IMG/VR virus record: IMGVR_UViG_3300015157_000063
Location: 1 to 13,930 of that record
Source of the DNA: a virus
Taxonomy: Duplodnaviria > Heunggongvirae > Uroviricota > Caudoviricetes
Direction: 5' to 3' (one strand)
Length of the DNA: 13,930 bases
Shown piece by piece: positions 11,956 to 12,620 of the stretch (positions are counted from its first letter, which is position 1; each line of letters starts with the position of its first letter). Position numbers and translations under genes: made by a program. The notes beneath the pieces were generated by a model. It was not told where the DNA came from, made no database searches, and was given only the letters and a program-made list of their open reading frames with translations.

Positions 11956-11996
11956 GTAAAATCCCCGTCATATGGCAATCAGTAAAGGAAATAAAT

Positions 11997-12197
11997 ATGT
12001 CATCGAAAAACCGGACCCGCAGAACCACAACCCGCAATATCCGTTTCCCCAATCACATAATTGAACAGATCAACATCGCCCTTGAGCATAAAGGGTCCGG
12101 TAACTTTTCAGCGTGGGTTATTGAAGCCTGCAGGAGAAGGCTGGCAACAGATGCAACGCATCTGCGCCCGGCCAGCATGACAAATAACGAGAAATGA
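11997..12197 (+). CDS. small DNA-binding-like protein, YlcI/YnfO (DUF3950)-like; only plus-strand gene in the late region
   Basis: Internal ATG at 11997 with AAAGGA Shine-Dalgarno; MSSKNRTRRTTTRNIRFPNHIIEQINIALEHKGSGNFSAWVIEACRRRL... resembles the DLP12/Qin YlcI/YnfO family as recalled. Confidence 0.5.
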   Translation: MSSKNRTRRTTTRNIRFPNHIIEQINIALEHKGSGNFSAWVIEACRRRLATDATHLRPASMTNNEK

Positions 12198-12395
12198 ACG
12201 TTCGGTTTCTTCCACCATCGCACCGGACAGGCGACTATGAGGGGACAACGCCGCGCTCCGTTAACGCGGTAAACCCCGGTGTGTATCGTTTTTGATTATC
12301 CCCGCACACTCGCGCAGAGGAGTCTCCCTGTCGGGCTGCGGTCTCTGTTAATGCAGGAATACGGCGACAATACCGCGCATGGATAATAAGGTCGC

Positions 12396-12620
12396 TCAAC
12401 ACACTGGTTGTAATGCAGCGGATACCATGCGGCATTTAGCGGCATTCATCGTACACTCCACGGTTAGCTCTTCATTCGTGGCATTCACCTGAAAGGTCCG
12501 GGAGTGTAATTGCGTACATTTACCACTGAACGAACCTTCAACAAGAACACGACCACGCTGCAAAATACGGAACGGAATTGTTCCCTGAAAAGGTTCTACG
12601 GTTACCCGTAATTTCTTCAT
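12396..12620 (-). CDS. hypothetical 74-aa protein, translationally coupled to Rz
   Basis: ATGA start/stop overlap with Rz; strong GGAGGA Shine-Dalgarno 5 nt upstream; [34 protein letters not shown]... has no motif I recognise. Confidence 0.5.

Follow-up and report, generated by a model that had tools for sequence, protein, structure and literature searches.

Here we describe the interval that separates the lysis cassette from the HK97-type packaging module in a lambdoid prophage, at positions 11956-12620 of the viral record IMGVR_UViG_3300015157_000063 (positions 1 to 13,930 of that record, the whole stretch of DNA that was analysed, are called the window below). The interval is a mosaic of three parts that occur independently of each other: orf74, an optional gene for a 74-residue protein on the late strand; EL, a conserved non-coding element of about 180 nucleotides (nt) with the covariation of an RNA transcribed from the late strand; and ylcI, an optional gene for a 66-residue protein on the opposite strand. 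An earlier interpretation made from the letters alone (the sequence-only reading) had treated ylcI and the 74-residue open reading frame (ORF) as a coupled pair and had left positions 12198-12395 as a plain gap, whereas the two genes vary independently across 127 related loci and the gap contains the structured RNA element, the most conserved feature of the interval. The resulting corrections are that the parts are independent modules and no two-gene unit, that the ATGA 'coupling' of orf74 to the preceding gene comes from a lost stop codon, and that ylcI and the packaging genes have no evident shared divergent control region. We hold the architecture taken alone with high confidence; the full explanation, which adds functions for the three parts, has in our estimate a probability of roughly 0.55, and the role proposed below for each of orf74, EL and YlcI is tentative, at somewhat less than even odds.

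The order of the interval was obtained by typing the neighbours of 127 EL-bearing loci, comprising 120 viral contigs retrieved by a shared 18-mer of the gap and other loci. Throughout this set the order is Rz, EL and a packaging module of one of four types, with three optional genes inserted at set places: orf74 between Rz and EL and, after EL, a TonB-like gene and then ylcI, the latter on the opposite strand. All presence/absence combinations of the optional genes were seen, with orf74 and ylcI each found without the other, and the lysis-to-packaging interval is a hot spot of optional genes, as had been expected from its reputation as a site of accessory genes. By packaging type, ylcI is present in all 34 HNH-type loci and in 18 of the 37 with a Nu1-type module, and it does not occur in the 24 DUF1441-type and 933W-type loci. 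The sampled loci were drawn by an exact 18-mer within EL, so that the architecture counts are biased, a point that weighs against our interpretation. The TonB-like gene, a third optional insert, is a 108-residue 'TonB family' fragment gene on the late strand, lying after EL and before ylcI or the packaging genes (L005 2494-2820, L134 764-1090 and other loci).

In the window the late operon runs on the minus strand as Rz/Rz1, orf74, a 198-bp stretch without an annotated gene, HNH, a 288-bp cos-like region, TerS and TerL, and ylcI is indeed the only plus-strand gene among the annotated genes from the terminase to Rz. The region is 100% identical to the chromosome of Escherichia coli Ecol_316, in which both ORFs are annotated by RefSeq, the product of orf74 as 'hypothetical protein' (WP_000736383.1) and that of ylcI as 'YlcI/YnfO family protein' (WP_000095741.1). 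Of 5426 complete E. coli genomes, 2041 contain a match to an 801-bp stretch, and in 1057 of these the match covers 80% or more of that stretch; it also has matches in 143 phage records, many of which are Shiga toxin phages. Both ORFs are therefore conserved, and ylcI and orf74 belong to catalogued, widespread families found in thousands of E. coli prophages, ordinary on their own.

Morons in the sense of Juhala et al. 2000 are present or absent between otherwise collinear phage genomes, carry their own promoter and terminator, and remain expressed when the prophage is repressed. Among the 127 loci orf74 and ylcI are each present or absent in fixed slots, and like bor and other morons in the Rz-to-cos interval of lambda they are inserts between conserved late modules. 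The gene ylcI also resembles bor in being placed on the strand opposite to late transcription; of signals of its own, the scan showed a weak promoter-like site within HNH and nothing resembling a terminator, although the K-12 copy is transcribed (PMC12288877). The gene orf74 is not a classical moron, since it lies on the late strand and has no sign of a promoter or terminator of its own.

EL is the one piece of the interval that is constant across the lambdoid phages. Its boundaries are sharp and its flanks mosaic, and it is conserved in all sampled contexts, following the lysis cassette in phages of the four packaging types, always after the last lysis-cassette gene (or bor) and on the late strand. 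Identity to the window copy is 74-86% in VT2-Sakai, lambda-like phages and Salmonella phage S137, and 80% over 100 nt in lambda itself. Leftward genes end 2-3 nt from the 3' boundary of EL, namely ylcI in the window (3 nt), lambdap78 in lambda and ybcV in the DLP12 prophage of E. coli K-12. In a scan of one genome per species the EL core was found in 7 contigs, mostly of Escherichia, a narrow range with no wider phylogenetic depth. No reading frame on either strand is open in most copies.

The secondary structure of EL was written as seven helices with 41 pairs (P1-P7, Table 1) and converted to a covariance model (R1), with which 98 sequences were searched. The window copy scores 239 bits, and matches at E<=0.01 were obtained in 95 of the 98 sequences (66 distinct). 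In the model-fitted alignment, 97.6% of the cells pair and 15 pairs are changed on both sides, compared with 3.0+-1.5 in shuffled controls (none of 500 reaching 15) and 1-6 in slid controls. A structure-blind MAFFT alignment retains 94.2% pairing and 11 two-sided pairs, whereas shuffles give 4.7+-1.5 (none of 500 reaching 11) and slid controls 3-5; on a structure-blind alignment RNAalifold independently gives the 5' domain of EL, with compensatory pairs in P2, the helix that stacks with P1 into a long interrupted helix. Compensatory variants of P6 replace CCGCG/CGCGG by TCTC/GAGA, CACGTT/AACGTG or CAGC/GCTG, and those of P7 replace CCGG/CCGG by CCTG/CAGG (phage 2B8) or TCGA/TCGA (S137). The sequence of P6 and P7 is wholly replaced yet the pairing is kept in VT2-Sakai, PhiR12_3, 2B8 and Salmonella S137. 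Across the alignment 251 cells hold G-U and about 12 hold A-C, and pairing is lower (88.3%) on the opposite strand; the two observations together identify the EL RNA as that of the late-operon strand.

Several observations weigh against a functional RNA. Folding of the single sequence gives no signal on either strand (z -0.42 relative to shuffles), the structure supported by covariation, at -44.5 kcal/mol, differs from the minimum-free-energy fold, at -67.9, and most EL copies are more than 95% identical, so that the covariation rests on about a dozen divergent lineages. EL might instead be conserved as DNA, for instance because proteins bind it or because it links modules during recombination at their boundary, or it might be the remains of a gene: its boundaries are sharp and its flanks mosaic, near-identity of most copies is what recent exchange would give, folding energy is not significant, and an ORF is annotated across EL in some genomes (VT2-Sakai orf48, phrog_6954). 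Such readings have to accommodate compensatory changes on both sides of 11-15 pairs, in excess of shuffled and slid controls and seen on the structure-blind alignment as well; a G-U to A-C asymmetry that is not expected from DNA pairing; the exchange of P6 and P7 in four phages with pairing kept; and the want of an open frame, the annotated ORF varying in start, stop and frame. We consider them unlikely. That EL is an undescribed functional structured RNA of the lambdoid late transcript, present in lambda and in Shiga toxin phages, we put at even odds.

The ORF in question was considered as a protein-coding alternative and rejected. It occupies 12235-12435 (-) in the window and has the phrog_6954 annotation 'Rz-like spanin', but its start lies in non-homologous flanks, its stop varies (TAG or TGG), and premature stops and frameshifts are found among the copies. 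In VT2-Sakai the corresponding orf48 (NP_050547.1; L006 2441-2701) is called across EL under the same name. Since start, stop and frame are not conserved, 'Rz-like spanin' ORFs across EL are probably an annotation artefact, judging from the aligned copies. A 10-codon mini-ORF at the 5' edge of EL was also dismissed, as it is missing from lambda and ev087.

Comparison with known RNAs gave no counterpart of EL. A search of the whole window with cmscan against Rfam 15 (E<=1) returned no match at 12193-12384, its matches falling only at 780-3908. The known lambdoid RNAs of Rfam 15 (for example AgvB, AsxR, Esr41, STnc100, IS009 and nut/boxB-type elements) are, like EL, restricted to enterobacterial phages and prophages. 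Described prophage small RNAs (sRNAs) map close to pR' and to the moron site next to Q, or within structural operons (PMC4104026; bioRxiv 10.64898/2026.05.13.724894), not after Rz as does EL, and EL differs from the known lambdoid elements also in having no terminator-like 3' end. An identification of EL with a known prophage sRNA was thus discarded, AgvB and AsxR being located next to pR' (PMC4104026). A literature search for RNAs near borD, ybcV or Rz found no functional work.

EL may act in cis within the late transcript. Our best guess is that the stacked P1-P2 helix would serve as a processing or stability signal marking the end of the lysis segment; EL could, for example, be a signal for RNase processing or stability, or the source of a processed regulatory RNA. 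If EL is functional, it would constitute a new cis element for the late operon of lambda and for the Shiga toxin phages that share it, and a recurrent mis-annotation, the 'Rz-like spanin' of VT2-Sakai and phrog_6954, would be removed.

The second part of the mosaic, orf74, is on comparative evidence a real gene of the late strand under loose constraint. Fifty homologues with 53-97% identity were collected, the full-length ones mostly of 74 residues; this length is kept down to 61-64% identity, and the indels in the aligned subset, among them a 5-residue deletion and a 16-residue insertion, are in frame. An exhaustive profile search of 1.8 billion representative proteins gave 47 matches, those with E 1e-8 to 1e-12 including proteins of 70-81 residues on unrelated phage contigs, and the domain also occurs within the longer proteins P0205 (225 residues) and P0204 (280 residues, a full-length form of phrog_2571). 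The pooled ratio of nonsynonymous to synonymous polymorphism (pN/pS) of 0.50 indicates a gene that is real but loosely constrained. A chance ORF without coding function would agree with the lack of a Pfam or NCBIfam family, with a pN/pS only moderately below 1 and with the modest third-position bias (46/34/57 over the codon positions), but it would hardly hold its length over such divergence with in-frame indels, recur on unrelated contigs and in fusions, or give a confident structural model from a shallow alignment, and we regard this explanation as very improbable.

AlphaFold2 (AF2) predicts an all-beta protein, a beta-sandwich with a mean predicted local distance difference test score (pLDDT) of 89.6, which supplies the structure prediction that the sequence-only reading had proposed for this protein. 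With neither a signal peptide nor a membrane segment detected, the product is predicted to be a small cytoplasmic beta-sandwich. It gave no match to Pfam, NCBIfam or PADLOC, and its relatives are uninformative. It matches positions 100-172 of the 291 positions of PHROG 2571, a family of phage proteins of about 280-291 residues, with E 2.7e-28. P0204 matches the whole profile, with its orf74-like domain at residues 95-162, whereas orf74 corresponds to a stand-alone central domain that lacks the N-terminal coiled coil and the C-terminal region, and is not a full-length member.

The sequence-only reading had inferred that orf74 is co-translated with the spanins. The strong ribosome-binding site and the overlap that it pointed out are both present: a GGAGGA motif stands 3 nt upstream of the start, and the orf74 ATG (12620-12618) overlaps the Rz TGA (12619-12617) as ATGA. 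The junction nevertheless exists in two states. In about 21 loci, Salmonella included, Rz ends in RTQCI(N/K) followed by a TAG that lies 23 nt upstream of the orf74 ATG; about 24 loci, the window included, have CTG, TTG or CAG in place of this TAG, and Rz continues for 11 codons to a TGA that overlaps the ATG. The Shine-Dalgarno sequence GGAG(G/A)A of orf74 is conserved in both states and the overlap is confined to about half of the loci, from which it follows that the ATGA is not a conserved coupling device. By comparison of the two states it is a secondary, lineage-specific consequence of the loss of the Rz TAG stop, and co-translation as a property of the gene pair is not supported.

A functional place for orf74 in the lysis cassette, translationally coupled to Rz and working with or regulating the spanins, was weighed on the same loci. 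The gene, when present, always comes directly after Rz on the same strand, and the overlap does occur in the window and the other loci of the second state; moreover, the gene of the distant homologue P0197 likewise overlaps its upstream gene by 4 nt. A stop/start overlap conserved wherever the gene occurs is, however, not what the loci show (about 24 with and about 21 without), and the stop 23 nt upstream in the latter, Salmonella among them, makes the overlap secondary. In 72 of the 127 loci orf74 is absent and Rz is followed directly by EL. Spanins act in the envelope, while the orf74 protein is modelled as soluble, and the gene upstream of P0197 encodes a coiled-coil and beta protein with no Pfam spanin match. 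We judge membership in the lysis cassette to be quite unlikely.

We favour instead an account in which orf74, optional and directly downstream of Rz with its own Shine-Dalgarno sequence, would be expressed with the late operon in lytic growth, a point mutation having removed the Rz stop in this lineage and created the ATGA overlap; its product may be an accessory factor of the lytic cycle directed towards the host or its defence systems and not a component of lysis. In metagenomic phage contigs (L137 4314-4598, L138 3316-3600) P0197 occupies the orf74 slot, its gene overlapping by 4 nt that of a 204-residue coiled-coil/beta protein; downstream come an Acb2/Tad1-hairpin gene and Nu1, in this order. 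Acb2/Tad1-hairpin proteins form a family of anti-CBASS/anti-Thoeris sponges. From this neighbourhood, the slot may be one in which counter-defence genes accumulate. P0205 shows weak similarity (E 2e-5), in its N-terminal part, to the 204-residue protein upstream of P0197. A further consequence of the altered junction is the 11-residue C-terminal extension of Rz (12617-12652 (-) in the window), which about half of the prophages with orf74 share. Rz meets Rz1 through its C-terminus, and the extension might affect spanin function.

The third part, ylcI, belongs to DUF3950, as the sequence-only reading had supposed: the profile search gave a match to PF13132 with E 3.1e-19 and 69 bits, above the curated cut-off of 25, together with matches to NCBIfam NF041551 (YlcI_YnfO_N; 35.2 bits, cut-off 30) and phrog_949 (E 8e-33). 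In the family alignment (A2) residues 1-49 form a near-invariant core and residues 50-66 a variable tail, and pN/pS over codons 1-49 is 0.09 among 31 distinct alleles; ylcI is under strong purifying selection. E. coli K-12 YlcI (DLP12, b4589) and YnfO (Qin, b4533) have the same small size and an N-terminal core about 68-87% identical in A2, and their genes are arranged as in the window, running against the late operon and diverging from the gene with which packaging begins (ylcI/nohD and ynfO/nohA). The C-terminal tail of the window protein differs from that of its K-12 relatives, and no DUF1398 gene (ybcV/ydfO) follows ylcI in the window. A tblastn match in Pasteurella phage Pmp7 under the name 'transcriptional repressor' was discarded, since it lies on the strand opposite to that gene.

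The AF2 monomer model of YlcI (pLDDT 72.7) has an extended N-terminus and helices at residues 19-32 and 34-55, the order of elements of a ribbon-helix-helix (RHH) protein. In this order and in element lengths, a short strand (RNIRFP) followed by two helices, YlcI agrees with P22 Arc, Mnt, ParD and the C-terminal domain of HicB; the motif NIRFP aligns with NLRWP of Arc, and the HicB-like phrog_497 gives a weak match (E 0.006). Against this assignment, the top Foldseek matches of the model, the RHH proteins ParD2 and Arc, are non-significant (E 3.4-6.6), hhalign with Arc gives an insignificant probability of 1.9%, and a profile search of the Protein Data Bank sequences returned no match. A second homologue search with the YlcI alignment returned only close relatives. 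None of the matches to RHH repressors and antitoxins is thus significant, and neither an operator nor a partner toxin was found for YlcI. RHH proteins are homodimers that place their paired N-terminal strands in the major groove of DNA. The core is probably an RHH DNA-binding domain, a reasonable inference from the model that is statistically insecure.

Control of ylcI was considered next to that of the packaging genes. The gene adjoins the packaging module and is antisense to the late operon; HNH is inside that operon, and the late transcript is antisense to all of ylcI. The distance of 41 bp between the HNH and ylcI starts, from which a shared divergent control region had been proposed, is exact. 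Within these 41 bp (11956-11996), however, only two ribosome-binding sites are found, the AAGGA of ylcI and a minus-strand GGGGA before the HNH ATG, and a consensus scan gave no promoter-like site there. The only plus-strand candidate found for the ylcI promoter is a weak, unverified sigma-70-like site at 11867-11895, within the coding sequence of HNH, and shuffles give no fewer such sites than the scanned region. The sequence upstream of ylcI depends on the module: HNH-type and Nu1-type contexts are unrelated there, and the break falls at the start codon. The proposed shared region is therefore not supported.

A bidirectional promoter and operator in the spacer, through which YlcI would regulate the packaging genes, could draw on the divergent start codons 41 bp apart, on the presence of ylcI with every HNH-type module sampled (34 of 34) and on the listing of a YlcI/YnfO protein in capsid-forming phage-inducible chromosomal islands (cf-PICIs) with HK97-like packaging genes (PMC13612085). 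The spacer is too short, however, to hold two promoters in addition to two Shine-Dalgarno sequences, HNH sits in a Q-dependent late operon, and Nu1-type phages carry the same YlcI core at 388 bp from nohD/nohA with unrelated upstream sequence, which is hard to reconcile with an operator conserved beside the gene. We find such a control region improbable.

The persistent position of ylcI allows another interpretation, in which YlcI serves packaging instead of regulating transcription, binding DNA as a small accessory protein at or near cos, for example to shield the prophage cos or to assist the terminase. Seen from the lysis genes, ylcI always comes immediately before cos and the first packaging gene, in lambda, DLP12, Qin and HK97-type prophages, and reportedly also in cf-PICIs (PMC13612085), and its linkage to HNH modules is complete. 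On the other side, ylcI is transcribed against the late operon and would be poorly placed for expression during packaging, and it is missing from 19 of 37 Nu1-type loci as well as from all 24 DUF1441-type and 933W-type loci. It also counts against this role that, to our knowledge, lambda packaging has been reconstituted for decades without a YlcI-like factor. We regard a packaging function as unlikely.

In the explanation that we prefer, YlcI is probably an RHH dimer. A promoter on the packaging side would drive its synthesis in the lysogen, and the protein would be a DNA-binding regulator, most likely a repressor of the leftward unit from which it is itself transcribed and which runs against late and packaging read-through. 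Published RNA-seq of K-12 lists a convergent transcript overlap of ybcW and ylcI (PMC12288877), which shows that the K-12 copy is transcribed in a lysogen-like state. The scan of the region, which found neither a terminator-like site nor a convincing promoter for ylcI, speaks against this account, as does a literature search that found no functional work on YlcI, YnfO or DUF3950. Should YlcI prove to be an RHH regulator that lysogens express, ylcI would join cI, rex, lom and bor among the genes expressed from the prophage.

Phage lambda offers a tractable system for these questions. A tblastn search found an intact ylcI copy of 64 residues about 200 bp left of cos, for which the RefSeq record NC_001416 has no annotation. 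The prophage position typical of the family, beside the first packaging gene and divergent from it, is seen in the window and in K-12, and the lambda copy, on the complement strand left of cos, agrees with it. Together with the covariation-supported RNA between bor and lambdap78, and provided that EL is functional, the 2 kb from Rz to cos in lambda would contain two conserved functional elements missed by standard annotation.

Table 1. Coordinates of the features described, in the window unless another record is named
Feature	Position	Strand	Remarks
EL, conserved non-coding structured RNA element	12193-12384, core 12200-12373	- (late-operon strand)	~180 nt
EL P1	12373-12367/12289-12283	-	
EL P2	12361-12351/12307-12297	-	
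EL P3	12340-12336/12317-12313	-	
EL P4	12335-12333/12328-12326	-	
EL P5	12277-12274/12244-12241	-	
EL P6	12269-12265/12255-12251	-	
EL P7	12228-12223/12205-12200	-	
orf74, 74-residue accessory gene	12396-12620	-	ATG 12620-12618
orf74 Shine-Dalgarno GGAGGA	12624-12629	-	3 nt upstream of ATG, inside the extended Rz 3' end
ylcI	11997-12197	+	66 residues; ATG 11997-11999; AAGGA Shine-Dalgarno at 11985-11989
Spacer between HNH ATG (11953-11955) and ylcI ATG	11956-11996		exactly 41 bp
Weak sigma-70-like site, candidate ylcI promoter	11867-11895	+	CTGACA-17-CAGAAT, 9/12, inside HNH coding region
Rz i-spanin gene	12617-13111	-	PF03245, E 7e-51
Rz1, nested in Rz	12706-12891	-	PF06085, E 1.7e-21
HNH endonuclease gene, HK97-type packaging module	11590-11955	-	PF01844, E 2.7e-7; RefSeq annotation HNH endonuclease
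TerS	10738-11301	-	
TerL	9080-10741	-	
EL in lambda, NC_001416	46863-47040	rightward late strand	model match, between bor and lambdap78
EL in K-12 DLP12, NC_000913	~579004-579182 (L131 3505-3683)		between borD and ybcV
ylcI copy in lambda, NC_001416	48109-48303 (L130 3110-3304)	complement	tblastn; intact, 64 residues

Several other features of the window were recorded. The intergenic region between HNH and TerS (11302-11589) contains several copies of TGTTAAC / GTTAACA, for example at ~11480-11500, 11415-11425 and 11375-11400, which are candidate terminase-binding repeats of a cos site. At ~4500-6870 (L003 1-967) the portal gene is truncated beside an IS21-like ISEc10 transposase, according to the RefSeq annotation of the identical sequence, and the prophage is accordingly defective. 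Rfam IS009 matches lie on the minus strand at 780-983 (112.7 bits, gathering score 117), 1829-1908 (43.5 bits) and 3719-3908 (19.4 bits), and a recent preprint reports IS009 matches near the prophage sRNA PasB. A partial CssrB match of 32.6 bits is located at 1740-1802 (-).

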